DNA of 64,000 bases from an uncultured delta proteobacterium (GTDB taxonomy: Bacteria; Desulfobacterota; RBG-13-43-22). The stretch's first letter is position 1. Each line of letters begins with the position of its first letter. Positions 29,784 through 64,000 of this stretch are shown here, one piece after another. The stretch spans positions 17,682-81,681 of the forward strand of contig CAVQFQ010000018.1 in assembly GCA_963711835.1 (NCBI GenBank), in the 5' to 3' direction. A program made the translations under genes and the position numbers. Below the pieces are notes generated by a model, which saw only the letters and a program-made list of their open reading frames with translations, was not told the origin of the DNA and searched no databases.

Positions 29784-30549
29784 TTAGCCCTTCTCCTTCC
29801 AGAACTTCTTTGGCCAAGTCCAAATAGCTTTGGGCCCCTTTGGAATGGATGTCATAGAGGACAACCGGCATTCCATGGCTGGGACTTTCGCTAATCCGAA
29901 CATTTCTCGGAATTACGGTCTTAAATACCAGTTCTTTTAAATGGGTTCGGACCTCTTTCTCAACCTGGGAAGAGAGGTTGTTCCGAACATCAAACATCGT
30001 CAACAAAATGCCCTCGATATAAAGAGCAGGATTTAAATTTTTTTGAACCATCTGGATGGTACCTAATAACTTGCTCAACCCCTCTAAGGCATAGTATTCA
30101 CATTGGGTGGGAATAATTACCGATTGAGCGGCCGTCAGGGCATTAATGGTTAGTAAGCCGAGAGAAGGAGGACAATCCAAAAAGATATAATCAAAGTCCG
30201 GCCGTAAGGACATGATTTGTTGTCTCAACACTTTTTCCCGGTCAGGCAGGTTAACCAGTTCGATCTCGGCCCCGACCAGGTCCATGTCGGAAGGGATGAT
30301 CTTTAGGAGAGCAATAGCGGTTGGTAAGATAAGGGCGGATGGGTCCACCTGGTCGATAATGAGCTGATATAACGATTGATCTATTTCCTTTGGGTTGATT
30401 CCCAGCCCACTGGTGGCGTTCCCCTGGGGGTCGCAGTCAATAACCAGAACCTTTTTATCGGAAAGGGCCAGGGCCGCAGCCAAGTTAATGACCGTAGCGG
30501 TTTTCCCTACCCCTCCTTTTTGATTGACGAAGCTGATAATTTTGCCCAT
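29761..30549 (-). CDS. parA: Chromosome partitioning ATPase ParA/Soj
   Basis: NQKGGVGKT, DCDPQGNAT, DCPPSLGLLT, IPRNVRISESPSHG. Confidence 0.96.
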   Translation of the reverse strand: MGKIISFVNQKGGVGKTATVINLAAALALSDKKVLVIDCDPQGNATSGLGINPKEIDQSLYQLIIDQVDPSALILPTAIALLKIIPSDMDLVGAEIELVNLPDREKVLRQQIMSLRPDFDYIFLDCPPSLGLLTINALTAAQSVIIPTQCEYYALEGLSKLLGTIQMVQKNLNPALYIEGILLTMFDVRNNLSSQVEKEVRTHLKELVFKTVIPRNVRISESPSHGMPVVLYDIHSKGAQSYLDLAKEVLEGEGLNGRIQEH

Positions 30550-30574
30550 AGAAGAGTTTGACCCATTATTATTT

Positions 30575-30857
30575 GAGGTTATCCCAACGTTATTTTATTT
30601 TTTAGCCATCCGGTTCTATGGGGCTTCAGGGGTTTTTATTTCGCAGTTGTCCAAAAGGAATCCCTAGCTCCAAAACCGCCCCGGCCGCCGTGGCGGACTA
30701 AGTTGATTCGGAGCCGGGCAGACACCCAACCCAAGACGATAAATCGCTTTGGTTTTGGTCCGCTGCGGCAGACGGTCGGCGTTTTAGCGGACAATCCCTG
30801 ACATCAAGACCCTTGAAGCCCTTTGGTTTGAGAATCATGTAATGTTAGGACAATCTC
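30575..30857. mobile_element. Nested MITE, family A (inner 30621-30821), degenerate
   Basis: Inner gggcttcagggg..gttgtcc / ggacaatccctgacatcaagacccttgaagccc; outer gaggttatcccaacgtta / taatgttaggacaatctc; shares ggcggactaagttg and gagccgggca with the 25.2 kb copy. Confidence 0.7.
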
Positions 30858-30909
30858 TATAGTTTTGTGATACTATGACATAAAAATTTTTTTTTAAAAA
30901 GAGAAATAA

Positions 30910-30925
30910 TGTTCCACGTGGAACA
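30910..30925. promoter_or_regulatory. parS centromere site
   Basis: Perfect palindrome TGTTCCACGTGGAACA about 360 bp upstream of parA. Confidence 0.92.
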
Positions 30926-31000
30926 TCTGGGAAAGGGGTACTTTCCTTGATCCCCACCATCTTTATAAAGACCTTTTAATTCCAATAAGCTATAATTCAT

Positions 31001-31110
31001 TGGTATCGTTCAAAAGTTGTGGCATTATATTTCTGATACCGGAGGGAAGGGGACCGGTGGTCCCCAGTCAGGCCATAATGCGCCAATGCCAAAACTTTTG
31101 AACGATACTA
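31001..31110. mobile_element. 110-bp MITE with 26-bp TIRs
   Basis: tggtatcgttcaaaagttgtggcatt / aatgccaaaacttttgaacgatacta (2 mismatches); flanking direct repeat ATTCAT. Confidence 0.78.
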
Positions 31111-31123
31111 ATTCATCGGAAAG

Positions 31124-31750
31124 ATGAGCATCGAATATAAGAAAGGAAAAAGGATGGATCAGCCTATTAGAAATGTGGCTATTTTAATTTTTGATCAGGT
31201 GGAGGTGTTGGATTTTAGCGGCCCCTTTGAGGTCTTTTCGGTCACAGGAGTTAAGACCGATCCGAGGCCTTTTCATGTCTATACCGTGGCGGAGAAGAAA
31301 AAACCTATTCTGGCCCGGAATAACCTCAGCGTAAATCCGCATTACTCTTTTAGTGAAGCCCCTCTTCCCAAGATTCTGGTGATCCCGGGAGGCCTTGGTA
31401 CCCGTCGGGAAATACATAATCCCGCTATGATTGAATGGATCAAAGACCAGGCCCAAAAAGCCGAACTTACCCTTTCGGTTTGTACCGGAGCACTTCTGTT
31501 GGCTAAAGCCGGTCTGCTCGATGGCCTAAAAGCCACCACGCATCACGGCGCTGTAGGTCTTCTCCAGGAACTGGCGCCCAAGACCGTTATTGAGCCTCAA
31601 AAACGGTTTATCGACAATGGCGCTATCATTCTATCGGCCGGGATCTCCGCCGGGATTGATATGTCCTTGTATGTGGTTGCCCGGCTTTTGGGGAAGTCGC
31701 AGGCCCTGGAGACCGCCCAATATATGGAATATGACTGGCACCAGGACTAA
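31124..31750 (+). CDS. DJ-1/PfpI family protein (InhA-like)
   Basis: VEVLDFSGPFEVF, IPGGLG, SVCTGA, ATTH, SAGISAGID. Confidence 0.9.
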   Translation: MSIEYKKGKRMDQPIRNVAILIFDQVEVLDFSGPFEVFSVTGVKTDPRPFHVYTVAEKKKPILARNNLSVNPHYSFSEAPLPKILVIPGGLGTRREIHNPAMIEWIKDQAQKAELTLSVCTGALLLAKAGLLDGLKATTHHGAVGLLQELAPKTVIEPQKRFIDNGAIILSAGISAGIDMSLYVVARLLGKSQALETAQYMEYDWHQD

Positions 31751-31774
31751 TCAGTTAATAACGTTCAAAAGTTG

Positions 31775-31947
31775 GAGGTTGTCCAAAAGGTAATCCGTAG
31801 CCCCAACCCGACCCATCCGCCGCGGCGGACTGCCGGCGTTTTGGCGGACAATCCTTGAAATCAAGACCCCTGAAGCCCTTTGGGGTGATTTAATATTTTA
31901 AGAGGCTACCCCTTGAGTTTGAGAATCACGTAACTTTGGGACTATCC
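31775..31947. mobile_element. Shortened family A composite MITE with a 9-bp duplication
   Basis: gttgtccaaaaggtaatccgtagcccc...gccggcgttttggcggacaatccttgaaatcaagacccctgaagccc...aatcacgtaactttgggac; flanked by CAAAAGTTG on both sides. Confidence 0.72.
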
Positions 31948-32200
31948 CAAAAGTTGAGGCAATAATCCGGCCATTGAAATCCGAACCCACGAGTCCACAT
32001 CAGGTTCATTAGGATGTCCCTTTGCCGGGAGGAAACGGCCTCGGTCCCCTCGGATCTTCCCGCCAAGAAATCCCCCCATATTAATACATAATTGTAATTA
32101 ACAAAATTACCATATTACAGTTTTGTATAATACTAAATACCATTTTTGCAGTTTTATTTAATTAACATATTGTAATTACATATAATTTATTCATTTCCCC

Positions 32201-32217
32201 TTGGCAGGCCTTTTGCA
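32201..32217 (+). promoter_or_regulatory. Sigma54 (-24/-12) promoter of amtB
   Basis: TTGGCAGGCCTTTTGCA: GG-N10-GC with TGGCA and TTGCA, just upstream of the amtB start. Confidence 0.8.
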
Positions 32218-32254
32218 AAAATATTATTAATTACCGTCTTTGGGGGGGAACCTT

Positions 32255-33586
32255 ATGAAAAGCAAATTGGGCCGGGGTTGGTTCTGGGGCGTTTTGTTTT
32301 TTCTATCAACTAATAGTGTCTTTGCAGCCGGAGAAAGTCAAATCGACAGCGGTTCCACGGCCTGGATGTTGATGTCAACCGCTTTGGTATTACTCATGAT
32401 TCCAGGATTGGCGATGTTTTATGGAGGGCTGGTGCGAACCAAAAATGTCCTGGGAACCATGATGCACAGCTTTGTTTCCATGGCCATTATCGGCGTCCTC
32501 TGGGCGGTCTGCGGTTATGCCCTCTGCTTCGGGAAAAACATCCTGGGGGGCTGGATCGGTTGGAATGGCGATTACTTCTTTTTAAAGGGAATCGATGATT
32601 CTATCCATAGTTCCGGGGTCCCGGAGTATGTGGTGGCCATGTTTCAGGGAAAATTCGCCATTATTACGCCGGCCTTGATAGCCGGCGCTTTTGCCGAACG
32701 CATTCGTTTCCGGAGTTATTGCGTTTTTATTACTCTGTGGTTTTTATTGGTTTATTGCCCCCTGTGTCATTGGGTCTGGTCTGGGGACGGTTTTCTCTAC
32801 AACCTGGGGGCTCGCGGGGTTATCGATCTGGCCGGAGGAACGGTGATCCATGTCTCAGCCGGAATAAGCGCCTTGGTGGCTGTCCTTTATCTGGGGGCCA
32901 GACATGGCTATCCGAAGGTGGTGACCTCTCCCAACAACTTAGTCATTACCATGATCGGAGCCGGGTTATTGTGGGTCGGCTGGTTTGGGTTCAATGCCGG
33001 AAGTACTGTCTCCAGCGGGCTGGATACGGCCAGGGCCCTGACCATGACCCAGATTTCAGCCGCCTCAGGGGCACTAGCCTGGATGTTGATAGAGTCCATC
33101 CACCTGCATAAGGCCACCTCCCTGGGGTTTGTTACCGGCATTCTGGCTGGTCTGGTAGTCATTACACCCGCCGCCGGGGTGGTCCAGCCTATCGGTGCCA
33201 TTATCCTGGGCGGGATTTCCTCTCTGGTCTGTTATTCCGCCATCTTGCTCAAATACAAACTCGGTTACGATGACACCTTGGATGTCTTTGGTGTTCATGG
33301 GGTAGGCAGCGGCTTCGGGGTCCTGCTTCTTTCCTTCTTTATCCGCCCGAGCTGGATGGCCGAGGCCGCGCTCAAGGCCGGTGGTTCATGGACTATCTGG
33401 AATCAATTAGGCGTCCAGGCTTTCGGACTGGCGGTAACGATTGGTTATGCTGCCACAGTCACGATGGTGTTGGTCTGGATTATTACTAAAACTCTCGGGT
33501 TCCGGATTGATCCCCAGGAAGAGATGGTCGGGTTGGATCAAAGCCTTCATGGGGAGCACGGCTATGGACTCCTGGATGTCCGCTAA
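32255..33586 (+). CDS. amtB: Ammonium transporter
   Basis: TAWMLMSTALVLLMIPGLAMFYGG, GAFAER, DLAGGTVIH, LLWVGWFGFNAGS, DDTLDVFGVHG. Confidence 0.97.
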   Translation: MKSKLGRGWFWGVLFFLSTNSVFAAGESQIDSGSTAWMLMSTALVLLMIPGLAMFYGGLVRTKNVLGTMMHSFVSMAIIGVLWAVCGYALCFGKNILGGWIGWNGDYFFLKGIDDSIHSSGVPEYVVAMFQGKFAIITPALIAGAFAERIRFRSYCVFITLWFLLVYCPLCHWVWSGDGFLYNLGARGVIDLAGGTVIHVSAGISALVAVLYLGARHGYPKVVTSPNNLVITMIGAGLLWVGWFGFNAGSTVSSGLDTARALTMTQISAASGALAWMLIESIHLHKATSLGFVTGILAGLVVITPAAGVVQPIGAIILGGISSLVCYSAILLKYKLGYDDTLDVFGVHGVGSGFGVLLLSFFIRPSWMAEAALKAGGSWTIWNQLGVQAFGLAVTIGYAATVTMVLVWIITKTLGFRIDPQEEMVGLDQSLHGEHGYGLLDVR

Positions 33587-34153
33587 ATGGGTTTTTCGAC
33601 GGAATCATCAAAAATAGAAAAGGAGCCTCCCTAACTTCCCGGGCCATTAACCCTGACTTAAATCAGCGCCTTGATTAAAGAGGGCCTGAACAATAATAGG
33701 ATTTATCCCCACCAGCTTTTTAACTAATTGAAACCATGTGTTTATTTAAGTGAATACGGTTTTTTTGGCTTTTTCAGTGCTTCCCGGCGGGGAAAAGCGT
33801 AATTCTCCATTACGATCCTTTTAAACCGCCAAAATAAGAACTACTTCCCTCCAACCCCTGAGATCTTCCCCTTTTTCAAGTCTGTTTCATGAAAAATTAT
33901 ATCTTAATATTTTTCTTGACAAATTCTTATTTAAACCGTTTAATTTAAACCAAATTTGATGGATACCTTTTTATAAAAATAAATATAAACAGAAAGTTTC
34001 AATTAAAAGAATTAGTTTCACTTTAGAGTAAAGGGTTAACCTCTTAATAGCCCAAGAAGGGAATTGATTAGTTGTTTCTTTAGGTAAACATGGTTCGGTT
34101 GATTATCAAGGGATGTACCAGAGAGTATTTAACGTCGGCCTACAAAAAAACAG

Positions 34154-36262
34154 ATGGCTACCCCTTCTCACATCTATAACTTTAGGAATGAGGGTCAACT
34201 CGAGGAGGCCGATCTTCGGCACTATAATTTATATAATCTTATTGAGTTGTTAGGGTCGGAAGATCTTGAAAAGCGATTTAACAATGTAAAAAAAATTAAT
34301 CGCAAAAGACTGATCGATCAAATCAATTATCTCAATTTTGCAGATGGTAATTTGATCATTGTCTTTAAGCATTCCAGGTACGAGGAACTCTTAACCATCC
34401 CGGCCATACCCGATCCTTGCCAAACCGAAGTTCTTTCCTGCCGGATAGAAAAGACCGGCTATGCTTTCCAGCACCTAAAAGAATCCAGGTTTCTTTGTTT
34501 CTACATTGAAGATGGGAGAAAAGTCCTTTTAGCCCGATCCGAAGAAATTGAACTGATTGATAACGGCCTCTGTATTAAGGTTCCTGAATTTTGTTATGAA
34601 ATAAGCTCCCGGAAAACAAGACGCTATGCCTGCCCTGAGATTCAAGCCCAGGTGATCCAAAACGGTATCATCTTTTCCGGGCATCTATCCGTTTTCAGTA
34701 TCGGCTCTTTTCAGGTTGAAATTTTCTCCGATGAGAACAGCTCCCTCAAATGGGTCAATGCCGAATATCCGGTTCAGGTTATTCTCAAAAAACAGAACCA
34801 GATCCTCTACACCGGCGAATGCACTATAATCAAACACAGCCGAAGCCGCGATGCCAAGAGCCTGATTTTACTCCCCAGCCTTTCTCCCATTAAACGATTT
34901 AAAAAGAGGGAATTCCGGGCTCCGAGGCAGAAACTGCATCCCTCTCCGAGCATCTCTTTCCTCCATCCTTTAATCGGGAAATTAATTCACTTGACCGTTT
35001 GCGACTTATCCACGTCGGGTTTTTCCATTGAGGAGGAAGGGGAATCGTCCAACCTGTTGCCCGGCATGATCATCCCGGAAATAAAAATAGACCTGGCTAC
35101 GGCCACGAACCTGGCCTGCCGCGCCCAGGTCGTCTTCAGGAATCCTTTGGATCAAAATATCATTAAGTGCGGGCTCACCATATTAAGTATGTCTACCGAA
35201 GACTATATCAGGTTATCCAATATGGTGACCAAAACCTTCAATAACAACCTGGATGTTTGCGGCCTTATCGATTTGGAAAATCTATGGAATTTTTTCTTTG
35301 AAACCGGCTTTATCTATCCTAAAAAGTACCACTACATTCAATCCAACAAAGAAGCGTTTAAAAAATTATACGAAAAAATCTACACCGGCACCGCCGGAAT
35401 CGAACGGCATTTCACCTACCAGGAGCGCGGGGCCATCCTGGGCCATATTTCCATGTTGCATATCTACGATACCACCTGGATGCTGCACCATTATGCCACC
35501 ACCCCGAACTCGAGGCATAAGAGGGTGGGCTTGACGTTGTTACAGCAAATTGAACGCTTTATTATCGATTCGCATTATATCGATTCGACTAAGATGGATT
35601 ATATGATCTGTTTTTTCCGTCCGGACAATAAATTCCCCAATCTGGTTTTCGGGGGAGCGGCTCGGACCTTGCGGGATCCCCAAATTTGTTCCCTCGACAG
35701 CTTTGCCTATTTTAATTATCCCCAGGCCTTAAACACCAAGCGGCAGGTTCTACCCCAACCCTGGGCGATGACCCGAACCGATCGGGAAGATCTGGAAGAG
35801 CTGCGAAACTTTTATGATCATACCTCGGGGGGGCTGATGCTCCAGGCCCTTAATGTACAACCCGGTTTGGAAGAGGACGGTTCCCTCAGCCAGGCTTATC
35901 ATAAAGTCGGCTTGAAGAGAGAACGCCACCTGTTATCCATCAAGAAGGATGGAGAAGTAAAAGCGATTATCAATTTGCTTATGACCGAAAAAGGACTCAA
36001 TCTCTCCGAACTGGCCAATTGTGTTTCCCTGATCGTCCTGGATCCCGAAGACTTCCCCTTCGAAATCTTTCTCAAGGCCTTGTCTAACTTGAGCCTGTTT
36101 GATGAACGGGAAATCCTCCCGGTCCTAATCTACCCGGTTCACTACGCCCAGAAATATTCCCTGGCTTATGAAAGAATCTATAATTTATGGGCCTTTAAGG
36201 TGGATAACAGCGATTTTTACTTCAAGTATATTAACAAGATCTTCTCCCGCATTGTTTCCTAA
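34154..36262 (+). CDS. Tandem PilZ-like domain protein with uncharacterised (GNAT-like?) C-terminal region
   Basis: SRKTRRY (RxxxR) and VCDLSTSGFSI (DxSxxG); C-terminal ~330 aa not confidently assigned. Confidence 0.7.
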   Translation: MATPSHIYNFRNEGQLEEADLRHYNLYNLIELLGSEDLEKRFNNVKKINRKRLIDQINYLNFADGNLIIVFKHSRYEELLTIPAIPDPCQTEVLSCRIEKTGYAFQHLKESRFLCFYIEDGRKVLLARSEEIELIDNGLCIKVPEFCYEISSRKTRRYACPEIQAQVIQNGIIFSGHLSVFSIGSFQVEIFSDENSSLKWVNAEYPVQVILKKQNQILYTGECTIIKHSRSRDAKSLILLPSLSPIKRFKKREFRAPRQKLHPSPSISFLHPLIGKLIHLTVCDLSTSGFSIEEEGESSNLLPGMIIPEIKIDLATATNLACRAQVVFRNPLDQNIIKCGLTILSMSTEDYIRLSNMVTKTFNNNLDVCGLIDLENLWNFFFETGFIYPKKYHYIQSNKEAFKKLYEKIYTGTAGIERHFTYQERGAILGHISMLHIYDTTWMLHHYATTPNSRHKRVGLTLLQQIERFIIDSHYIDSTKMDYMICFFRPDNKFPNLVFGGAARTLRDPQICSLDSFAYFNYPQALNTKRQVLPQPWAMTRTDREDLEELRNFYDHTSGGLMLQALNVQPGLEEDGSLSQAYHKVGLKRERHLLSIKKDGEVKAIINLLMTEKGLNLSELANCVSLIVLDPEDFPFEIFLKALSNLSLFDEREILPVLIYPVHYAQKYSLAYERIYNLWAFKVDNSDFYFKYINKIFSRIVS

Positions 36263-36498
36263 GGGAAAAATTTCACCCTCGACATCTATTTCCTTCTCTC
36301 GTATAATACGGCTAAAAGTGACCGAATGGTTATGAATTTGGATCCAAAAAGGGTTCGAGTTTTTTTTATTGACCCAACATGGATTGGATTCTTTGATCTA
36401 AAAGCGTTCAATGGATAATACCCCCAATTAAAATATTGCCCGGGAAGTAGGGAAGTTTGCGGCCTAATCCTGAAAACCGAAGCGGGAGCTTAAGGGTT

Positions 36499-38403
36499 AT
36501 GAACGATAGGCCCCTCTACAGCAGTCGAATTTTAAATACCTATATCAACTTCGTTAAGAGGAATTACCCCGCCATTGATGTCAATGAAGTGTTAAGCTAT
36601 GCCGGTGTGGAATCATATCAGGTAGTTGATGAAGGCCACTGGTTCACCCAGGAGCAGCAAGACCGCTTTCACGAAAAATTGGTGGAGTTAACAGGGAATG
36701 AGAAGATCGCCCGCGAAGTTGGAAGATATTCGGCGTCCCCAGATGCCGTCGGTTTATTAAAGCAATATGCCATTGGATTATTAGGTCCTGCCCATGTCTT
36801 TCAAATGGTAGGTAATATCTACCCGAAGTTTAGTAGATCCTCAACAATAAAGTTTAAAAAGATTTCCTCCAATGTTGTTGAAATCACAGCAACTCCCCGA
36901 GAAGATTCTTCTGAAAAACCATATCAATGTGAAAATCGGTTGGGCATGTTTGAATTAACCATAGAAATGTTCAATTACAAGGCGGCGAGAGTTGAACATT
37001 CGGAGTGTATCTTTGAGGGGGCCAAAGCATGTAAATATTTAATTTCATGGCAAAAACCACGCTCTTTATATTGGAAACGGATTCGAAATATTGTCGGTCT
37101 GTTAGTATTGGGGCTCAGTGGTTTTCTGATTTGGTTGTTTCCTTGGGATACGATTACCATACTTTTGGCGATTTCCGTGTTTTTGGTACTAAGTTATTTT
37201 GTCAAAAACTTGGAAGAGCGAGAATTACAAATTACCCTTAACAATCTCCGAGATATGACGGAGCATCAGATTGATCAGATTGATATTAATTATAAAAATG
37301 CTTTAATGATCAATGAAATTGGGCAGGCCATCAGTAAAAAATTAGATATTAATGCCATATTATTAAATATCATGCATACCCTGGAACAGAGACTGGATTA
37401 CGATCGGGGGATGATCCTGCTGGCCAATGAGGATAAGACCCTGTTGCATTATGCTGCGGGTTTTGGCCTGGACGATGAAAAATTGAAAATTTTAAAGGAG
37501 ACCTTTTTCCATCTGGATCGGCCGGAATCCAAGGGGGTTTTCGTCCTGTCTTTTCGCGAGCAAAGACCTATCCTGGTCAATGATATGGACAATCTTGAAA
37601 AAACCATCTCCTCCAAAAGCTTAGACATATTAAGGGGTATGGGAAGCCAATCTTTTATTTGTTGTCCCATCATCTATGAAACCGAATCAATGGGTGTTCT
37701 GGTAGTAGATAATATTCGGAAAAAAAGAGGATTGACTCAGACGGATATCAGCTTGTTAACCGGGATCGCCCCCCAAATAGGGATCAGTATTCATAACGCC
37801 CGAATGGTCAATAATCAGAAAAAACAGTTTAATTCGATTTTGCGAGTTTTGGCGGCCTCCATCGACGCCAGAGACCCGCTAACTGCCGGGCATTCCGAAA
37901 AGGTCACCGAGTATGCCGTGGGGATTGCCCGCATCTTAGAGTTGGACGGCGAGTTCTGTGAAATGATCGGAATCGCCGGGTTACTGCACGATTACGGAAA
38001 AATCGGGGTCCGGGATGATGTATTAAAAAAGCCGGGTAAATTAACCGATGAAGAGTATACGGAGATTCGTTCCCACGTGGAACAAACCCGACGGATATTG
38101 GAACAAATGGAATTTGAGGGGATCTTCAATCAAATTCCTTCTATTGCTGGTTTTCATCATGAAAAGGTTGACGGCAGCGGTTATCCAATGGGTTTAAAAG
38201 GAGAGGAAATTCCCTTGGGAGCCCGGATCATTGCCGTGGCCGACGTTTTTGAGGCCTTAACCGCCGAGAGACATTATCGTCAGCCCATGAAAAACGAAGA
38301 TGCTTTGGAGATCATTCAAAAAGGATCGGGCAATGCCTTTGATCCCCAGGTGGTGGAGGCCTTTGATCGTTATTATCATAACCATATTGGAAACTCCGGT
38401 TAA
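36499..38403 (+). CDS. HD-GYP phosphodiesterase with N-terminal V4R/H-NOX-like domain, 2 TM helices and GAF
   Basis: CENRLG..EHSECIFEGAKACKY (V4R-like Cys pattern), hydrophobic hairpin, GAF (FICCPI..MGVLVVD), TAGHS, HDYGKIG, HHEKVDGSGYP. Confidence 0.88.
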   Translation: MNDRPLYSSRILNTYINFVKRNYPAIDVNEVLSYAGVESYQVVDEGHWFTQEQQDRFHEKLVELTGNEKIAREVGRYSASPDAVGLLKQYAIGLLGPAHVFQMVGNIYPKFSRSSTIKFKKISSNVVEITATPREDSSEKPYQCENRLGMFELTIEMFNYKAARVEHSECIFEGAKACKYLISWQKPRSLYWKRIRNIVGLLVLGLSGFLIWLFPWDTITILLAISVFLVLSYFVKNLEERELQITLNNLRDMTEHQIDQIDINYKNALMINEIGQAISKKLDINAILLNIMHTLEQRLDYDRGMILLANEDKTLLHYAAGFGLDDEKLKILKETFFHLDRPESKGVFVLSFREQRPILVNDMDNLEKTISSKSLDILRGMGSQSFICCPIIYETESMGVLVVDNIRKKRGLTQTDISLLTGIAPQIGISIHNARMVNNQKKQFNSILRVLAASIDARDPLTAGHSEKVTEYAVGIARILELDGEFCEMIGIAGLLHDYGKIGVRDDVLKKPGKLTDEEYTEIRSHVEQTRRILEQMEFEGIFNQIPSIAGFHHEKVDGSGYPMGLKGEEIPLGARIIAVADVFEALTAERHYRQPMKNEDALEIIQKGSGNAFDPQVVEAFDRYYHNHIGNSG

Positions 38404-39212
38404 GAGGATAACGGCTTGCGGCCGCAGCAGGCAATTAGAGGTGTATAGGTAAATCGGCGGGGATGATGAAAAAAAGAGGTACACTCCTGAACGAAGGCCT
38501 CATAGGAGCCGTTGTACTCAGTAAATGGATAACCGATCTTGGGGGGAACCACTTCAATTTTTTTCATCCAGTTAAAGGCATCGGTGTCGTTGAGGGATCC
38601 ATAGATAACATGATGGGCCGAAATATCGACCTTTATTTCCTCGTAGCCTAAATCATAAAAATAGGAATAGAGTTTTCTTCCGGCATAGGGATCAAAATTT
38701 GCTTTTTTCTGTAAAATCTCCGTGATGGCGAAGATGGTCTTTTCCAGACGACCGGGTATCCCATAATGGCTAAGACAGTTGTAATCCAAATCCATCAGGC
38801 ATAAGATACCCCCCGGTTTTAAGATTTTGGTAATATTTTCTACCAATTGGGAGCCACCAACCAGATAGTACTCTAACAGAAACCGCACCCATAAAAAATC
38901 AAATCTGCCCAGGTCTTGTAACTCCTCTCTTGCATCCCTGCAAATAAAATGCAACCCAGGTTCAACATAATGGTTTTTGGCGTAGTCGTATCTATTTCGT
39001 GAAAAATCTATTCCAACCGCCTCCCCTCCCGGCTTGACCAATTCATAAAGGATAGAAGTTGTCTTTCCGGGACCACATCCTATATCAGCAACCCGCATTC
39101 CGGATCTTATCCCAGCCCAGAGGGCTTGGCGCTTAATCGTCTCCGGATCGGTTTTAAGGTCTAATCGGATTGATTCCTCTTCATTTTCCATGAGATAGGG
39201 TAAGGTTTCCAT
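38400..39212 (-). CDS. Class I SAM-dependent methyltransferase
   Basis: RVADIGCGPGK, GIDFS, FDFLWVRFLLEY, LKPGG. Confidence 0.9.
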   Translation of the reverse strand: METLPYLMENEEESIRLDLKTDPETIKRQALWAGIRSGMRVADIGCGPGKTTSILYELVKPGGEAVGIDFSRNRYDYAKNHYVEPGLHFICRDAREELQDLGRFDFLWVRFLLEYYLVGGSQLVENITKILKPGGILCLMDLDYNCLSHYGIPGRLEKTIFAITEILQKKANFDPYAGRKLYSYFYDLGYEEIKVDISAHHVIYGSLNDTDAFNWMKKIEVVPPKIGYPFTEYNGSYEAFVQECTSFFHHPRRFTYTPLIACCGRKPLSS

Positions 39213-39357
39213 GGGGGCTCACTTTTTAATTTATAGTGCTATTATGCTTGAAAAGTATTATAGAATTTGAGAAGTAATTACCAGAAGAATCTGAATAGGT
39301 AAAAAAATATCCAACTTTTTATTAAAAAATATACCCACCTCCAGAAGGCGGATTTTT

Positions 39358-40695
39358 ATGAAAAGGCTTCTATTAATAAACCCCGTTGGAAGAAGAAGCG
39401 GTTATCTCTTAAGCCAATTCTCAACATTTTCTCCCTTGAGTTTAGCGTATGTCGCAGCGCTAACCCCTTCCCATTGGGAGATTAAAATTGTAGATGAAAA
39501 TTTTGACACCTTTGAATTTGAGGAAGCCGATCTGGTTGGGATCACGGCCTTTTCCAGCAATATCAACCGAGCCTATGAATTGGCCCAAACCTACCGAAAA
39601 AAAAAGATTAAGGTGGTCATGGGCGGTATTCATGCCTCCATGCTCCCAGACGAAGCCTTGAATTACTGTGATGCAGTGGTCCGGGGAGAAGTGGAGGGGG
39701 TCTGGGAAAAAGTAATTTCTGATTTCGAAAAGAACAATTTAGTCTCCCTATACAACGGGCCTCAGGTTGATCTTAAAAGGTATGCGATTCGTCCCCGCCG
39801 TGATTTGTTAAGTCCGAAATATTTTTGGAATTCGGTTCAAACCTCCCGGGGATGCCCTTTTAATTGCCATTTTTGCTCGGTATCAAAATACCTGGGAAAT
39901 GAATACCGTCAAAGAGATCCAGATCAGGTGCTTGATGAAATAGAACAAATAAATGGCCACTATATTACTTTCGTAGATGATAATTTAGTTGGTCATAACG
40001 AGGAACACAGAAACCGGGCCAAAAAATTATTTAAGGGCCTGATTGACCGGGGAATAAATAAGCATTGGTGGATGCAAACATCTATAAATGCGGCAGAGGA
40101 TCTGGAGACAATTCAATTAGCCTCCAAATCTGGATGCATGATGGTTTTTATTGGATTTGAAACCATCAGCGAAGATTCTCTTTTGGGAATGAAAAAAAGG
40201 GTTAATCTAAAAATCGGGGTTGAAAACTATAAAAAGGTTGTGGATCGATTCCATCGTTATGGAATCGGGGTTTTGGGGGCTTTTATAATCGGCAATGATT
40301 ATGAATCTTCTAATTATTATAAAGCATTAGCCGAATTTATCATTCAAACAAACATTGACGTAGTGCAGATTACCATCTTGACCCCCCTACCAGGGACGGC
40401 CTTCATGGAAGAACTGGAAAAAGCGGGGCGTCTGATTTATCATAATTTTCCTGATGATTGGGAGAAATATCGTTTTTCTTATGTGGTCCATAATCCCAAG
40501 GGGATAACACCGGAAACCATCTATAGCGGAGATAATTTCATCAAAGAACGGATTTATTCCTTCCCCAGGTATCAATTCCGCATTTTAAGATCGTTAATAA
40601 ATCTAAAAAACCCAACCAATTTTTACACCGTTTATAAATTAAATGAAGCCTATAAAAGAGGCTGGCAAAACTCCCATTATTATAAAAACTTTTAA
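39358..40695 (+). CDS. Cobalamin-binding radical SAM enzyme
   Basis: N-terminal B12-binding domain (PLSLAYVAA, DLVGIT, VMGGIHAS), TSRGCPFNCHFC, FVDDN, IGFET. Confidence 0.92.
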   Translation: MKRLLLINPVGRRSGYLLSQFSTFSPLSLAYVAALTPSHWEIKIVDENFDTFEFEEADLVGITAFSSNINRAYELAQTYRKKKIKVVMGGIHASMLPDEALNYCDAVVRGEVEGVWEKVISDFEKNNLVSLYNGPQVDLKRYAIRPRRDLLSPKYFWNSVQTSRGCPFNCHFCSVSKYLGNEYRQRDPDQVLDEIEQINGHYITFVDDNLVGHNEEHRNRAKKLFKGLIDRGINKHWWMQTSINAAEDLETIQLASKSGCMMVFIGFETISEDSLLGMKKRVNLKIGVENYKKVVDRFHRYGIGVLGAFIIGNDYESSNYYKALAEFIIQTNIDVVQITILTPLPGTAFMEELEKAGRLIYHNFPDDWEKYRFSYVVHNPKGITPETIYSGDNFIKERIYSFPRYQFRILRSLINLKNPTNFYTVYKLNEAYKRGWQNSHYYKNF

Positions 40696-40746
40696 CCTTT
40701 TTAAGATACGAGTCACCCATTTCCCCAGGCGCTTGAAGGGGTCTTT

Positions 40747-41934
40747 TCAATCCGCCGCCTTGCGTATAAAAGTGGGGACATCCAGTTCTTCTTCGTCAAA
40801 ATAATAATCCGGGGGTTTGGCCGGCCTCCGCGGACCATACTTGTCTATTTCTTTACCGACCCGACGAAAGGTCGGGGTTTCCCGATCCTCGGGGCTTTCT
40901 CTCTTGAACTCGGGCACCGACGGGTGAATTCGTTCAATATCCAGGTGTACTTTTTCCTCTTTCAGGTGGATTCCCGTGGCCACCACGGTGACCCGCAATT
41001 CTTCCCCCATCCCTTCATCGATGGCTGTCCCGAATATGATATTGGCGTCTTCATGCACTTCTTTCCGAATCAGGGTGCAGGCTTCGGTAACCTCCTCAAA
41101 CCCCAGATTGGAACTGGCGGTAATATTAAGCAGCACCGCCCGGGCCCCGGAGATGGTAATATCCTCCAACAAAGGACTGGAGATGGCCCTCTCGGCCGCC
41201 TCAACCGCCCGGTTCTCCCCGCTGGCCACCCCGGTTCCCATAAGAGCGACGCCCATTTCCGACATGATGGCCTTCACATCGGCAAAATCAAGATTAATCA
41301 ACCCGGGGATAACCACTAAATCGGAAATCCCCTTGACGGCATAAAGCAAAACATCATCGGCTTTCTTCAGCATTTCCAGGAAAGTGGCCTTTTTGGTGGC
41401 CAGAGAAATCAGACGGTCGTTCGGGATGGTAATTAAGGTATCCACGACCTGGCGTAACTCCTGGATCCCTTCTTCGGCCTGTTTTAAGCGCCGGGTCCCT
41501 TCAAAATGGAACGGTTTGGTAACGACCGCGACGGTCAGGATGTCCAATTCCTTGCAGATTTGAGCCACTATGGGGGAACCGCCGGTTCCGGTCCCGCCTC
41601 CCATGCCGGCCGTGATAAAGACCATGTCGCTGCCTTGTAACGCCTCTCGGATTTTTTCCGAATCTTCCAGGGTGGCATTACGGCCAATTTCAGGATTGGC
41701 CCCGGCCCCTAAACCTTTAGTCAGGTTCGTTCCCACCTGGATCCGGGTCTCGGCCAGGCAAGAGGAGAGAGCCTGGAGGTCGGTATTGGCGGTAATAAAT
41801 TCAACGCCTGTCAACTGGGATCGGATCATATTATTAATGGCATTGCTGCCCCCTCCCCCGATACCCAAGACGCGGATTTTTGGTTTCTGACAAGCGGTTT
41901 CTTCACCTACCCCAACCATTTCAATTTTCATCAT
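40747..41934 (-). CDS. ftsZ: Cell division protein FtsZ
   Basis: GIGGGGSNA, GMGGGTGTG, INLDFADV, LDVPTFIRK. Confidence 0.99.
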   Translation of the reverse strand: MMKIEMVGVGEETACQKPKIRVLGIGGGGSNAINNMIRSQLTGVEFITANTDLQALSSCLAETRIQVGTNLTKGLGAGANPEIGRNATLEDSEKIREALQGSDMVFITAGMGGGTGTGGSPIVAQICKELDILTVAVVTKPFHFEGTRRLKQAEEGIQELRQVVDTLITIPNDRLISLATKKATFLEMLKKADDVLLYAVKGISDLVVIPGLINLDFADVKAIMSEMGVALMGTGVASGENRAVEAAERAISSPLLEDITISGARAVLLNITASSNLGFEEVTEACTLIRKEVHEDANIIFGTAIDEGMGEELRVTVVATGIHLKEEKVHLDIERIHPSVPEFKRESPEDRETPTFRRVGKEIDKYGPRRPAKPPDYYFDEEELDVPTFIRKAAD

Positions 41935-42133
41935 CCCTTTTACCTCCTCTTGATTTGGTTTGTTCCCATTCTGGTGCCGAAAGGATAGATCCGCATGAAG
42001 TCAAGAAGAATCATCCTTTATATAGCTTGTTTGCAGCCGATTGAAAACAGAAATTTTTATCTTCCCTAACCTTTTGATTTAAAAAGTTAAAAAAATTTCG
42101 GGCCGTTCAATTGGCTACCCCAAGCCCCCTTTT

Positions 42134-43354
42134 TTATATAATCTCTTTAAACCATTTTTTCATCCGATCCATGACCCGGAAAAAAATATTTTGGTCGCGG
42201 ATCCTAAATTTTTTCTTGGGCAGGGATCTGGCTCCGTAAAGGACCAGGCCGACTGCGGTAGCATACATGGGACTGTTAACTACATCGGCAATCCCGCCGA
42301 ATCCCTGCGGATATCCTCGTCGAGCCGGAAGATTAAAAATCTGTTCGGCCAACTCAGGGATGCCTTCCATCAACGAAGAGCCGCCCGTTATGGCCAGGCC
42401 GGAGGCAATGGAATCGCTATAGTTCGACCGCAGGATTTCACGGTTCACCAGAGAAAAGATTTCTTCCACCCGGGGCTCTAAAATTTCCCCCAAGATCTGG
42501 CGCGTGAGGGTCCGGGGTTTTCTGCCTCCGACGCTCGGGACCTCAATGGTTTCATCCTTAGTGATCATCGAGGTTAGGCAACAGCCGTGGATCTTTTTTA
42601 TTTTTTCCGCGGCTAAATGAGGCGTTCGGAGTCCTACGGCAATATCGTTGGTCAGGTTGTTTCCTCCCAAGGCCAAAATGGAGGTGTGTTTAATGTTGTT
42701 GTTGGAGAAGATGGCCAAATCCGTGGTCCCGCCTCCGAAGTCGATCAGGGCCACCCCTAATTCTTTTTCTTCCGGGGTAAGGACGGTTTCACTGGAGGCA
42801 ATGGATTCCAATACGATATCACAGACGTCCAATCCGGCCTTGTTGGCACACCGAATGATGTTCTGGGCCGAGGTCACCGCCCCGGTGATAATATGGACCT
42901 TGACTTCCAGACGCACCCCCGACATGCCTAAGGGGTCCTGAATGCCGTCCTGGTCGTCGACAATAAATTCCTGGGGGAGCACATGGATCACTTCCCGATC
43001 CAGAGGAATGGCGATGGCCTTGGCCGCATCAATAACCCGTACGATGTCGTTTTTGGTGACTTCCCTGCTTTTGACGGCAATCACACCCTGGCTGTTAAAG
43101 CCTTTGATGTGCCCCCCGGCAATGCCGGCAAAAACGGAGGTAATCTCGCAGCCGGCCATGAGTTCCGCTTCCTCGATGGCTTTCTTGATCGAATTCACGG
43201 TGCTTTCGATATTGACGACCACCCCCTTCCGCAAACCCACTGATGGATGGGTCCCGATCCCGACGATATCCACCCCGCCTGAGGAGACTTCCCCGACAAC
43301 GGCACAAATTTTTGTGGTCCCGATATCCAATCCTACCACCAGATTGTTATGCAA
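42134..43354 (-). CDS. ftsA: Cell division protein FtsA
   Basis: VGLDIGTTKI, IDFGGGTTD, C-terminal WFKE helix; TTG start after GGAGGTGA (the ORF-track start is too far upstream). Confidence 0.96.
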   Translation of the reverse strand: MHNNLVVGLDIGTTKICAVVGEVSSGGVDIVGIGTHPSVGLRKGVVVNIESTVNSIKKAIEEAELMAGCEITSVFAGIAGGHIKGFNSQGVIAVKSREVTKNDIVRVIDAAKAIAIPLDREVIHVLPQEFIVDDQDGIQDPLGMSGVRLEVKVHIITGAVTSAQNIIRCANKAGLDVCDIVLESIASSETVLTPEEKELGVALIDFGGGTTDLAIFSNNNIKHTSILALGGNNLTNDIAVGLRTPHLAAEKIKKIHGCCLTSMITKDETIEVPSVGGRKPRTLTRQILGEILEPRVEEIFSLVNREILRSNYSDSIASGLAITGGSSLMEGIPELAEQIFNLPARRGYPQGFGGIADVVNSPMYATAVGLVLYGARSLPKKKFRIRDQNIFFRVMDRMKKWFKEII

Positions 43355-61904: not shown

Positions 61905-62235
61905 CTATCTTATCCCTATGGACTTACTCAGCAGAGTAAGAAGGGATTCAATTTTCAGGTTATGATTTGGTCCCTCCGGTCCTAAGACCATCAGACAGCC
62001 GGGACAATAAAGGCTCATGATATCGGCACCGGTATCTTTGGCCTGTTTAAGCCTGCCATCCCGGAAATCCAGCCCCGGCTTTACCGATCCACCGATAGCA
62101 TAGGCCAGGCAACACCAGGCTGCTTCTCCCCTATTTTCCATTTTGATCATCTTAATGCCCGGTATGGCCTTTACTATCTCTCTGGGGGATTCCGAGCCGG
62201 GTTTTACTCCGCGGACAGAGTGGCAGGGGTCATAA
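61905..62235 (-). pseudogene. C-terminal CCG-domain fragment of an Fe-S oxidoreductase (HdrD/GlpC-like)
   Basis: YDPCH..R, AWCC, AKDTGAD....CPGC; no credible N-terminus. Confidence 0.65.
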
Positions 62236-62368
62236 ATTACCAAAAAAAGAAACCTCCTGGTAAGAAAAAAAGTAAGCACCACCAAACTCAAACTCTTAAA
62301 CAGGAAGTTTCCAATGAACGAAACAGATCGTATCAGACTGGAGGAGTTTCGTCAACTCAAGAAAGAAC

Positions 62369-62769
62369 TTATGGATTTGCTTTAGATTGGGATTTATATT
62401 GGTTAACAGTAAGGGCTGTCTTTATTTCAAATAATAAATCCACTGAATTAAATGGCTTGGTAATAAAACAATCTGCTCCTTCTTTTAACCCTTTAGATAA
62501 ATCCTGCTCTCGGGCTAATGCCGTCAACATAATCACCGGCATATCTTTGGTAATTTGATTTTCTTTTAAACGTTTACACAACTCAAAGCCATTGATTTTC
62601 GGCATAAGAATATCAAGGATAATCAGGTCGGGCATTTCTTCTTGCGCTTTTTTTAGCCACTTTCCCCATTCGATGCACTAATTACATCGTAGCCACTGCT
62701 TTTCAATCTAATACTTAAAAATTCTACAAAGTCCGGCTCATCATCCACTACTAATATCTTTTTCTTCAT
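62369..62769 (-). pseudogene. Single-domain response regulator, frameshifted (~62655)
   Basis: MKKKILVVDDEPDF...ASNGESG, then shifted frame PDLIILDILMP...MLTA...TKPF. Confidence 0.78.
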
Positions 62770-62829
62770 CGGGGTTCTCCTTCCCTCTTTAAACTGAAAA
62801 CCCGGCTGGTTATTCGCCAAGCACTTCTT

Positions 62830-63177
62830 TTATTTTAGCCACAAGTTCGACCGTGCTCGCAGTCTTGACAAAATATCCGGAATATGGAACTCTTCTGCCG
62901 CTTCTTTTGTTTCCTTATCCCCTCTTGCCGTAAGTACTATTACGGGTATAGTGAATGTTTTGAGGTGTGCTCTTATATTCTTCAATGCTTCCAATCCGCC
63001 GCCTGCAGGCATCATGATATCCAAAAGTATTAGATCCGGTATTAATTTGATTGCCTGTGCCGTAGCTTGTACGGTATCGAATGCCCCTTCTATCTGATAG
63101 CCTTCGTGTCCTAACCTTATGGCCAGCATCTTTACCCAATCCTTTTCATCATCTACGATTAATATTCTTTTCCCCAT
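62830..63177 (-). CDS. Response regulator receiver, C-terminus probably degenerate
   Basis: ILIVDDE, PDLILLDIMMP, VLTAR; the KP motif is missing. Confidence 0.78.
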   Translation of the reverse strand: MGKRILIVDDEKDWVKMLAIRLGHEGYQIEGAFDTVQATAQAIKLIPDLILLDIMMPAGGGLEALKNIRAHLKTFTIPVIVLTARGDKETKEAAEEFHIPDILSRLRARSNLWLK

Positions 63178-63520
63178 AACTCTTTAGGCGCTTCTTAGCT
63201 ATTTTAATTAATTCTTCACCATTTTTAGCTTCATCCGGATAAACCGCAGAACCAAACCTTAATTTAATCTCTTTAGGTACTTTCTCATTGGTTAAATACT
63301 TTTCCAATGCTTCCCTTAACTTATTTTCTACACTCAAAGCACCTTTTTTATCACAGCCGGGCAAAATAATCATCATCTCGCCGGAATCCAAATAGAACAC
63401 AGCATTCCCATGGCGTATGCTACTCTTGATAATCGCCTTCATATTCTTTAAAATAGCATCTATTTTCTCATCTGAGAACTCCTGTTTTAATTGATTAAAC
63501 TCAAGAATAGGAGATAACAA
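63149..63520 (-). pseudogene. Degenerate GGDEF-like domain (probable C-terminus of the upstream kinase)
   Basis: SIRHG..FYLDSGEMMIILP...RFGSAVYPDEA..GEELIKIA; no GGDEF motif. Confidence 0.6.
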
Positions 63521-63567
63521 TTAAATTTATGCGAGCCTTCCGGTCCATGGCCTCTCGTATCCCATTA

Positions 63568-64000
63568 TCAAGTATTCCTTAAGATTCCTTCAGCAGGGTA
63601 TTTAGGCAGAATAAAAACTGACTTTTGCCCTTTGCCAAGTTTACTCTCCACCCGGATTTTGCCTCCATGCAGTTCAATAATTCCTTCGGTAATAGCCAGG
63701 CCCAGGCCTGTGCCTTTTTCTCCCGGGCCGGGCAGGCGGCCAAACTGTTCAAACTTACTGAATACCTTAGGCAGATCTTCCTCATTCATACCTAAACCGG
63801 TATCGGCCACAACGCACTCAATTTCTTTTCTTTTTCTTGCATGAAATTTCTATATAACCCCTATCCGTGAATTTTAAGGCATTTCCTATCAGGTTGGTAA
63901 AAACCTGAATTAGTTTATCCGGATCTACAAAGGCATCTATCTGTTTTTCCGGAACATTGATTTTTAACTCCAAGTTTTTTTCCTTTAGATTCAACTCAAA
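63568..64000 (-). pseudogene. Sensor histidine kinase HATPase domain, partial and frameshifted
   Basis: N-box VFTNLIGNALKFT, frameshift near 63830, then [22 protein letters not shown]. Confidence 0.78.

Follow-up and report, generated by a model that had tools for sequence, protein, structure and literature searches.

A 64,000-nucleotide stretch of DNA from an uncultured delta proteobacterium (Desulfobacterota, lineage RBG-13-43-22; contig CAVQFQ010000018.1, positions 17,682 to 81,681; hereafter the window) carries, between amtB and ftsZ, four genes of a module that is apparently undescribed so far. Three of these genes represent a conserved gene set that is real and widespread: a protein that joins PilZ barrels to a tandem GNAT acyltransferase fold (PilZ-GNAT), an S-adenosylmethionine (SAM) methyltransferase, and a sensor with a heme-free H-NOX fold, here joined to an HD-GYP phosphodiesterase. 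The fourth gene encodes a B12-binding radical SAM enzyme. We put the probability at roughly 0.5 that the core genes encode the synthase and the receptor of a lipophilic signal, one that is both acylated and methylated, with activity, substrate, product and ligand all predicted. We found no description of the module in the full-text literature (subscription journals and bioRxiv supplements lay outside its coverage), and neither 'GNAT' nor 'acetyltransferase' appears in the main text of two PilZ surveys, the supplements of which were likewise outside coverage.

A conserved gene set

The loci examined surround the best PilZ-GNAT hits, 80 out of 513 in GTDB and 80 out of 480 in metagenomes. They were picked by similarity; many of them are short, and the two sets have at least one contig in common. 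Within 6.5 kb of PilZ-GNAT, the methyltransferase was found in 62 of 80 GTDB and 59 of 80 metagenome loci, the sensor in 44/80 and 32/80, an outer membrane porin of the FadL family (PF03349) in 16/80 and 14/80, and the radical SAM enzyme in 6/80 of each. Of the loci, 78 were well flanked (3 kb or more upstream and 5 kb or more downstream; this set includes the window and 13 hand-picked loci). All four families were present in 10 of these 78, and PilZ-GNAT and the methyltransferase occurred with no nearby sensor in 20. All 17 FadL genes in the well-flanked loci were accompanied by both the sensor and the methyltransferase. The module genes occur in several orders and, judged by record titles, in at least three phyla.

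Genome content showed the same association. Across 251 genomes that sample the phylum evenly, the own genome of the window included, PilZ-GNAT was present in 31, or about one genome in eight. The sensor was present in 25 genomes, 23 of them shared with PilZ-GNAT, and the methyltransferase, for which 10 candidates were scored per genome, in 20, of which 18 were shared. Counted by family, the sensor occurred in 13 of 16 families with PilZ-GNAT versus 1 of 75 others, bearing in mind that kin are not independent. Eight genomes with PilZ-GNAT had no listed sensor; in three of them a divergent sensor is adjacent, and in two a contig edge lies about 570 bp away. A sensor with no detected PilZ-GNAT was found in genomes G099 (85% complete) and G093 (100% complete). 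The latter (L094:7156-9612; also L102 and L120) has two FeeM-family genes elsewhere.

The neighbourhood is also retained in highly divergent members. Four PilZ-GNAT copies about 21-25% identical (L081-L084) have the methyltransferase, a sensor kinase and a radical SAM gene adjacent, in different gene orders. An earlier note on this DNA, made from the sequence alone, had asked whether the four families are conserved as neighbours, and this was supported by their co-occurrence in the 251 genomes and by copies that lie side by side at about 21% identity. Among the outcomes that it said would sink its proposal were families that do not occur together elsewhere and a C-terminus of PilZ-GNAT that is no enzyme fold, and neither came true. 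Pairwise-identity correlations among the three core genes were 0.62-0.80 (68 loci), but as these ignore kinship we do not use them as support.

Further neighbours were seen. Just upstream of the module, the Geomonas loci (L050:4935-9575 and L062:4938-9574) contain a second sensor copy, a histidine kinase, and a GAF-GGDEF cyclase, a possible local source of cyclic di-GMP (c-di-GMP). A FabH-like protein (a weak hit to ACP_syn_III) lies at most 10 kb from the module in L018, L057, L063 and L064.

PilZ-GNAT combines three barrels with a tandem GNAT fold

The PilZ-GNAT gene (34154..36262, + strand) encodes 702 residues, comprising a YcgR-N-like barrel (37-152), two PilZ domains (153-245 and 252-366) and the tandem GNAT (361-687). 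The search for relatives returned 1,122 among 3,296 candidates. An AlphaFold2 model built from 72 sequences (pLDDT 86) was compared with known structures. In this predicted model, the N-terminal barrel matched YcgR-N (5y6h, VIA Z 11.2), the first PilZ barrel (150-243) matched PA0012 (Z 10.0) and the second (255-366) matched the PilZ domain of MrkH (5ked, Z 12.9, rmsd 2.3). The latter two matches show the six-stranded barrel expected of a PilZ domain. The tandem PilZ domains claimed earlier are therefore present, within a front end that totals three barrels, the YcgR-N-like one being extra.

The RxxxR sequence is found in the first PilZ barrel only (R153 in 71/72 and R157 in 72/72 rows). There the second half-motif, [D/N]hSxxG as defined in 10.1101/814665, is replaced by VFSIGS, with D in 52/72 rows and S at the last position in 59/72. 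In the second PilZ barrel this half-motif is intact as DLSTSG (D284-G289; the D, S and G of DxSxxG are kept in 69/72, 72/72 and 72/72 rows), and the RxxxR position reads FRxxR. Binding of c-di-GMP by PilZ-GNAT is likely by analogy, because PixB of Myxococcus xanthus binds it despite defective motifs, according to the accessible text of PMC8316039.

The C-terminal region of the model gave a GNAT fold in a Foldseek search (E 4.5e-9), and PF00583 scored 22.6 bits on the 702-residue protein against a cut-off of 20.7. Its best structural match is a histidine acetyltransferase (9emd; Z 13.1, rmsd 4.4 over 261 residues, 8% identity), followed by the N-myristoyl-histidine-bound solved form 9emp (Z 12.5); 9en3 is a further structure of histidine N-acetyltransferase. 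Among protein acyltransferases, NMT (Z 10.9), VipF (Z 11.0) and PatZ (Z 11.5) also matched. As NMT, VipF and sugar acetyltransferases lie within about 2 Z units of the best match, the GNAT fold does not name the substrate. A profile search of the GNAT region against PDB sequences gave weak matches only (best E 0.03). The GNAT fold that had been suggested for the C-terminus is thus supported, as a tandem GNAT.

Its assignment to the LuxI/FeeM class was not supported. No Pfam model of either family matched the protein itself at E <=1 or 47 family members at E <=0.1, and a search of the own genome with PF21926 (FeeM) found a different gene as its sole match. Alignment to the FeeM profile with hhalign gave a probability of 1.9% (10 rows, one of them wrong-strand), where a generic GNAT control was also low at 0.7%. 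FeeM and LuxI were absent from the fold matches listed for the whole 702-residue model, in which the GNAT part was not searched alone. We found no longer fused forms of 1230-3510 residues, which is weak evidence. A divergent form of about 950 residues with a canonical N-terminal PilZ occurs in L081-L084, with a two-kinase sensor and a sigma-54 activator nearby.

The sensor has an H-NOX fold without the heme histidine

The sensor phosphodiesterase (36499..38403, + strand; 634 residues) consists of an H-NOX fold (1-190), a hydrophobic hairpin (about 195-240), a GAF domain and an HD-GYP domain with R591xxR594. Its longest open reading frame (ORF) covers 36457-38403 (+) and would give 648 residues from a TTG; the start is probably the ATG at 36499, as in the database gene call. 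The hydrophobic stretch contains no long loop, and the sensor is therefore predicted to be cytoplasmic and membrane-anchored.

An AlphaFold2 model of residues 1-190 (pLDDT 90) matched H-NOX proteins, with VIA Z 16.4 to 6mx5 (rmsd 3.8, 176 residues) and 16.1 to 4u99, and a Foldseek E of 3.5e-7. VirS (Z 14.0) and V4R proteins such as DmpR (Z 8.2) matched less well, so that of the two folds named in the earlier note for this N-terminus, H-NOX is the nearer. Structure titles connect the fold relatives DmpR/PoxR, VirS and Bet3 with small hydrophobic ligands, either bound in the solved structure or named as what the protein senses.

The helix that corresponds by element order to the one bearing the proximal heme His (97-110) has His in at most 11 of 151 rows in any column. 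The propionate-binding motif of H-NOX proteins, which we take to be YxSxR, is absent; the matching strand reads VEITATPRED (consensus VEITVTP). H47, which is His in 111/151 rows, lies outside the matching helix and leaves atypical heme binding possible. Retained instead is a zinc-ligand pattern: C144 in 150/151, H167 in 142/150, C170 in 148/150 and C178 in 146/150 rows. This region aligns to the C-terminus of the Shewanella H-NOX, and its spacing equals that of C139/H161/C164/C172 there (accessible text of PMC7108781). Residues Y7, D44, W48, Q51, R72, E139, Q143 and R147, which are not part of the zinc pattern, are invariant.

The HD-GYP active site is predicted to be intact and of c-di-GMP type. 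All of its ligands (H465, H497, D498, H526, H553, H554 and D582), as well as G561-Y562-P563, are kept in 84/84 rows each, which upholds the intact catalytic motifs reported earlier. We placed the guanine motif at R591xxR594, and the equivalent of the third-metal glutamate (E185) at L461, by PmGH offsets that we presume to be correct. The R at the last position of the guanine motif, shared by 66 of 84 rows (H in 17, N in 1), is of the c-di-GMP type: Rxx(R/K) marks c-di-GMP enzymes, and Q or N marks cyclic GMP-AMP enzymes (10.1101/600031, in the part available). The RxxH form seen in the 17 relatives (alignment A2, column 594) is a variant noted for deltaproteobacteria. Position 461 is L in 67, M in 6, I in 5 and Y in 4 of 84 rows, with no acidic residue. 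As L461 replaces the glutamate that defines the trinuclear HD-GYP subfamily (10.1101/2021.11.05.467447, in the part available), this HD-GYP is likely to be binuclear. Its product would be pGpG.

The sensor domain has no Pfam model and comprises 1,293 representatives at 50% identity (E <=0.001). We classified the outputs of 45 long relatives, hand-picked for varied length from 95 long ones among the best hits listed. These were histidine kinases in 35 cases, HD-GYP in 3, GGDEF in 2, a cyclase in 1 and none recognised in 4. Relatives near the length of the sensor itself are mostly HD-GYP proteins. Some sensor HD-GYPs carry an extra C-terminal PilZ (L043:11949-14333, L072:5245-7563 and L076:3656-5905).

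The methyltransferase and two accessory partners

The third core gene (38400..39212, - strand) encodes a class I SAM methyltransferase of 270 residues that forms a module-specific family. The best PDB match of its profile is the unannotated structure 3mgg (E 7e-17). Plant phosphoethanolamine N-methyltransferase (5wp5, E 2e-13) matched over the core only, and the longest annotated match, over residues 37-246, is juvenile hormone acid methyltransferase (E 2e-12), which methylates a hydrophobic acid. This is a weak hint that the substrate may be a small hydrophobic acid.

The B12-binding radical SAM enzyme (39358..40695, + strand; 445 residues) has the CxxxCxxC motif as CPFNCHFC and scores above cut-off for both PF04055 (63.5 bits) and PF02310, the N-terminal B12-binding domain (54 bits). 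It reached none of the NCBIfam equivalog cut-offs, those of HpnR, HpnJ, BchE and PhpK included (best 97 bits against a cut-off of 650), and arsenic (ArsM/ArsL) and hopanoid readings likewise scored far under their cut-offs. It occurs in 12 of the 78 well-flanked loci and is thus an accessory member; of the two SAM enzymes earlier placed in the module, only the methyltransferase belongs to the core.

At the level of orthologues, the radical SAM gene is optional yet module-specific. Orthologues with at least 63% identity were found in seven other genomes of the 251. In six of these they adjoin the sensor gene within 1.7 kb; for the seventh, a contig end lies 522 bp from its start. L018, L023 and L140 add further loci in which it accompanies the module. 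Three weaker matches (43-48% identity) lie away from the module. A second radical SAM type had a match in 1/251 genomes, within the module. This orthologue-level linkage and the second type overturned the result of a first clustering (3/81 loci), in which the enzyme appeared to be an incidental neighbour. In a quick tree of 31 rows, provisional given its long branches, the module-linked enzymes require their label to change three or more times on starred branches, in line with repeated recruitment. One locus (L098:11374-14418, G099) has two convergent module copies (66% and 63% identity) adjoining a sensor kinase.

The FadL porin subfamily is a frequent and module-specific partner. All four matches with at least 50% identity to a module copy (50-55%; a match of 100%, the probable source of the query, was left out) adjoin a module gene. 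By contrast, of 25 matches with identity <=44%, 24 come from genomes that have no PilZ-GNAT match. Both this porin subfamily and the repeated radical SAM recruitment favour a lipophilic small molecule as the object of the module, and fit equally with its being made or removed.

A putative synthase-receptor pair

How might these proteins work together? We propose that the YcgR-PilZ-PilZ front end would bind c-di-GMP and thereby switch the tandem GNAT, whose substrate for N-acylation would be an amino acid or another small amine. The methyltransferase would then methylate the acylated product, a methyl ester being the best guess, and where present the radical SAM enzyme may add a C-methyl or similar decoration. 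The product would cross membranes, aided in many species by the dedicated FadL porin in the outer membrane, and occupy a sensor cavity corresponding to the heme cavity of a true H-NOX. There it would tune the sensor output, which is c-di-GMP breakdown in the window and a histidine kinase, GGDEF or cyclase elsewhere. Sensors with an HD-GYP would close a feedback loop. The loop suggested in the earlier note can therefore stand for these HD-GYP versions; since many sensors have a histidine kinase, GGDEF or cyclase output instead, a closed c-di-GMP loop would apply to part of the family only.

Several observations weigh against this proposal. It is built on folds, motifs and linkage, from which activity, substrate, product and ligand are inferred. 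Matches to the GNAT are distant (7-8% identity, rmsd 4.4), with protein acyltransferases and sugar acetyltransferases within about 2 Z units, and just 1 of 47 family members passes the Pfam GNAT cut-off. The pyrophosphate loop of GNAT motif A, which we take to be Q/RxxGxG/A, reads HKRVGL here and is degenerate; scored in the N-terminal GNAT half only, G459 alone is conserved (44/47). PilZ-GNAT could therefore be a pseudo-enzyme. The PilZ barrels for the c-di-GMP control proposed earlier are there, but RxxxR and [D/N]hSxxG are split over two of them and neither carries both half-motifs. The pattern at the zinc site permits a redox-sensing reading (accessible text of PMC7108781). No partner was nearby in 11 of the 78 well-flanked loci, and in 10 of the closest loci the other three module genes are absent from the stretch examined. 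Genes for an acyl carrier protein or an acyl-CoA ligase do not recur around the module. No FadL was detected in the own genome (89% complete). Generic radical SAM enrichment is modest (4/42 and 1/22 well-flanked loci, versus about 3% expected from the eight copies of the own genome), and of the six radical SAM-sensor pairs four come from one genus, the others from two further families.

Of the alternatives, the one that fares best, though we think it unlikely, is a protein-modification circuit. In this case a c-di-GMP-gated GNAT and the methyltransferase would modify the sensor or another protein, in the manner of PixB or of chemoreceptor adaptation, with no diffusible product. That the tandem GNAT also matches NMT, VipF and PatZ, and that the sensor domain is predicted to be cytoplasmic, would suit such a circuit, as would the control of motility by PixB through its acetyltransferase domain, on a substrate that is not known (accessible text of PMC8316039). 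It does not account, however, for a FadL subfamily that is specific to the module or for B12 radical SAM enzymes having been recruited repeatedly, and the long matches of the methyltransferase are small-molecule enzymes.

The FadL linkage can be turned round: the porin might import a hydrophobic compound from outside, which the H-NOX domain detects and the acyl- and methyltransferases modify, to end the signal or to detoxify it. The fold relatives DmpR and PoxR do sense phenols, and the complete genome G093 has a sensor and no detected PilZ-GNAT. We consider this somewhat less probable again, since a c-di-GMP-type front end would suit a regulated synthase better than a detoxifying enzyme, and 20 of the 78 well-flanked loci keep the GNAT and the methyltransferase with no nearby sensor.

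A little more doubtful still is a redox switch coupled to membrane remodelling, where the Cys3His zinc site senses oxidation and c-di-GMP sets the acylation and methylation of a membrane lipid by the three enzymes. The near-invariant C144/H167/C170/C178, with the zinc-ligand spacing of Shewanella (accessible text of PMC7108781), are in keeping with this, a heme-free Vibrio H-NOX is a precedent for oxidation sensing, and the nearest named models for the radical SAM enzyme, far under cut-off, include the lipid methylases HpnR and HpnJ. Yet a generic redox sensor need not pair with one enzyme family, and 23 of 25 sensor genomes have PilZ-GNAT; moreover, the invariant non-zinc residues suggest a specific pocket. 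Finally, a chance gathering of unrelated genes in an AT-rich island, to which the lowest GC of 556 windows and the scattering of module genes in same-family relatives might point, is very improbable and largely refuted for the three core genes by their adjacency in several gene orders and at least three phyla by record titles, by a neighbourhood retained at about 21% identity, and by joint presence even where unlinked.

Returning to the synthase-receptor pair, a bolder version would see in it cell-cell signalling of a new class, used by anaerobes among the Desulfobacterota, Nitrospirota and Planctomycetota. A methylated N-acyl signal would come from a tandem GNAT switched by c-di-GMP, optional B12 radical SAM enzymes would give it species dialects, and an H-NOX domain would read a lipid instead of heme and pass the message to swappable kinase or cyclic-nucleotide outputs. 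We offer this tentatively, at rather less than even odds. If true, it would provide sulfate-reducing, metal-reducing and syntrophic bacteria with a signal synthase and receptor. It would also mean that an H-NOX fold can serve as receptor for a small molecule with no heme, and that a biosynthetic enzyme can be a c-di-GMP effector in its own right. The cultured carriers Geomonas silvestris Red330, G. limicola Red745 and Desulfurivibrio sp. C05AmB make the proposal directly testable.

Comparison with known systems

The closest analogue of PilZ-GNAT is PixB (MXAN_2604) of M. xanthus, a PilZ-PilZ-GNAT protein, with which it shares the fusion of PilZ to a C-terminal GNAT. According to the accessible text of PMC8316039, PixB shows c-di-GMP binding in vitro, c-di-GMP is its proposed activator, and its substrate is not known. 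In each of the two PixB PilZ domains RXXXR is retained and the Ser of the second motif is missing, the arginines R121 and R331 lying 210 residues apart. Compared by published description, PilZ-GNAT differs in having three barrels, motif halves in different barrels and a tandem GNAT. That text mentions no H-NOX sensor, methyltransferase, radical SAM or FadL partner for PixB. The Geobacter protein GSU1240, for which a PilZ deletion changes biofilms, was considered as a member; this lead is unconfirmed, as the papers give neither its length nor its neighbours.

The sensor domain shares its fold (Z 16.1 to 4u99) and Cys/His/Cys/Cys spacing with the zinc-binding H-NOX proteins of Shewanella oneidensis and Vibrio cholerae, which are coupled to kinases and c-di-GMP enzymes (accessible text of PMC7108781). 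The proximal heme His is described there as absolutely conserved in 598 H-NOX sequences. In contrast to the Shewanella and Vibrio proteins, the sensor has no counterpart of this His, has its output fused on through a membrane hairpin and a GAF domain, and is linked to a cassette of enzymes.

As far as the available sources describe them, RpfF/RpfC/RpfG and RpfF/RpfR resemble the module in logic only: a synthase, a neighbouring membrane sensor with a kinase or c-di-GMP output, and a hydrophobic signal. PhcB/PhcS, a synthase-receptor pair with a fatty signal, follows the same logic, and FadL reportedly aids the uptake of long-chain acyl-homoserine lactones. Among the families tested, we found no synthase or sensor family in common with the Rpf and Phc pairs, and the putative synthase here, unlike theirs, bears its own c-di-GMP-receptor domains.

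A chemical precedent is given by FeeM/NasY N-acyl amino acid synthases, GNAT-fold acyltransferases that stand next to a tailoring methyltransferase and yield methylated N-acyl amino acids, in stieleriacine clusters (PMC12479983) and for methyl esters of N-acyl alanine from Roseovarius, for which the accessible text of PMC11580390 gives the synthase as unidentified; both sources were available in part. PilZ-GNAT differs from these in being no member of the FeeM Pfam family and in having a tandem GNAT, a PilZ front end and a putative cognate receptor. The histidine N-acetyltransferase 9emd/9en3/9emp, the best fold match, does acylate an amino acid, but at 7-8% identity a shared fold shows no function.

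Layout and history of the block

The four ORFs between amtB (32240-33586) and ftsZ (40747-41934, - strand) are real genes. They lie where the earlier note placed them, with the motifs it quoted, in a block that is indeed AT-richer: its GC of 0.421 is below every one of 556 equal-sized non-overlapping windows of the genome (mean 0.528, sd 0.029). The HD-GYP and methyltransferase stops overlap by 4 nt, as had been noticed, and the methyltransferase and radical SAM genes are divergent, with 145 bp between them. PilZ-GNAT, the HD-GYP sensor and the methyltransferase are present in one copy each in the own genome. The assembly is supported by independent DNA, metagenome contig L126, which runs from amtB through PilZ-GNAT to HD-GYP at 95-97% identity. 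The HD-GYP/methyltransferase and methyltransferase/radical SAM junctions are bridged by contigs of runs X1/X2, and the radical SAM/ftsZ junction by none of these contigs (L126, runs X1/X2). Short contigs from RNA runs X7 and X24 of one study, which may be DNA carry-over, cover parts of all four genes.

A candidate sigma-70-like promoter (TTGACA-17-TTTAAT; 33917..33945, + strand) lies upstream of PilZ-GNAT, matched to the consensus by eye only; the promoter scan requires A at position 2 and so does not list it. The scan did return a candidate with an 11/12 match (36279..36307, + strand) upstream of the HD-GYP gene, which suggests a separate transcript for that gene. This candidate is weak, as the scan gave no excess over shuffles (14 in total against 16.1). 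An Rfam scan of 30500-42200 had zero matches, as had a search of plasmids, and the ESM Atlas gave hypothetical clusters only.

In those 10 of the closest loci that are mentioned above (L001, L002, L005-L007, L127-L129, L131 and L172), PilZ-GNAT directly follows ftsA-ftsZ on the same strand. The block in the own genome faces ftsZ and is inverted relative to this arrangement. An in-place inversion of an ancestral run of ftsZ, GNAT, sensor, methyltransferase and radical SAM would yield the present order, in which case the low GC of the block need not imply recent import. Further AT-rich DNA was found at plsY-parAB, 4-6 kb upstream of the block (GC 0.43-0.48).

Three features of the wider window lie outside the module. 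No adjacent glnK-sized ORF of at least 90 residues is found upstream of amtB (31750-32240). Positions 62000-64000, where both window and contig end, are again AT-rich (GC 0.39-0.42) and show a strong negative skew. At 31000-31110 and 31830-31950, a high summed contig depth (up to about 325), loose ends, and joints from one place to the other suggest that a short repeated element flanks the DJ-1/PfpI gene on both sides.

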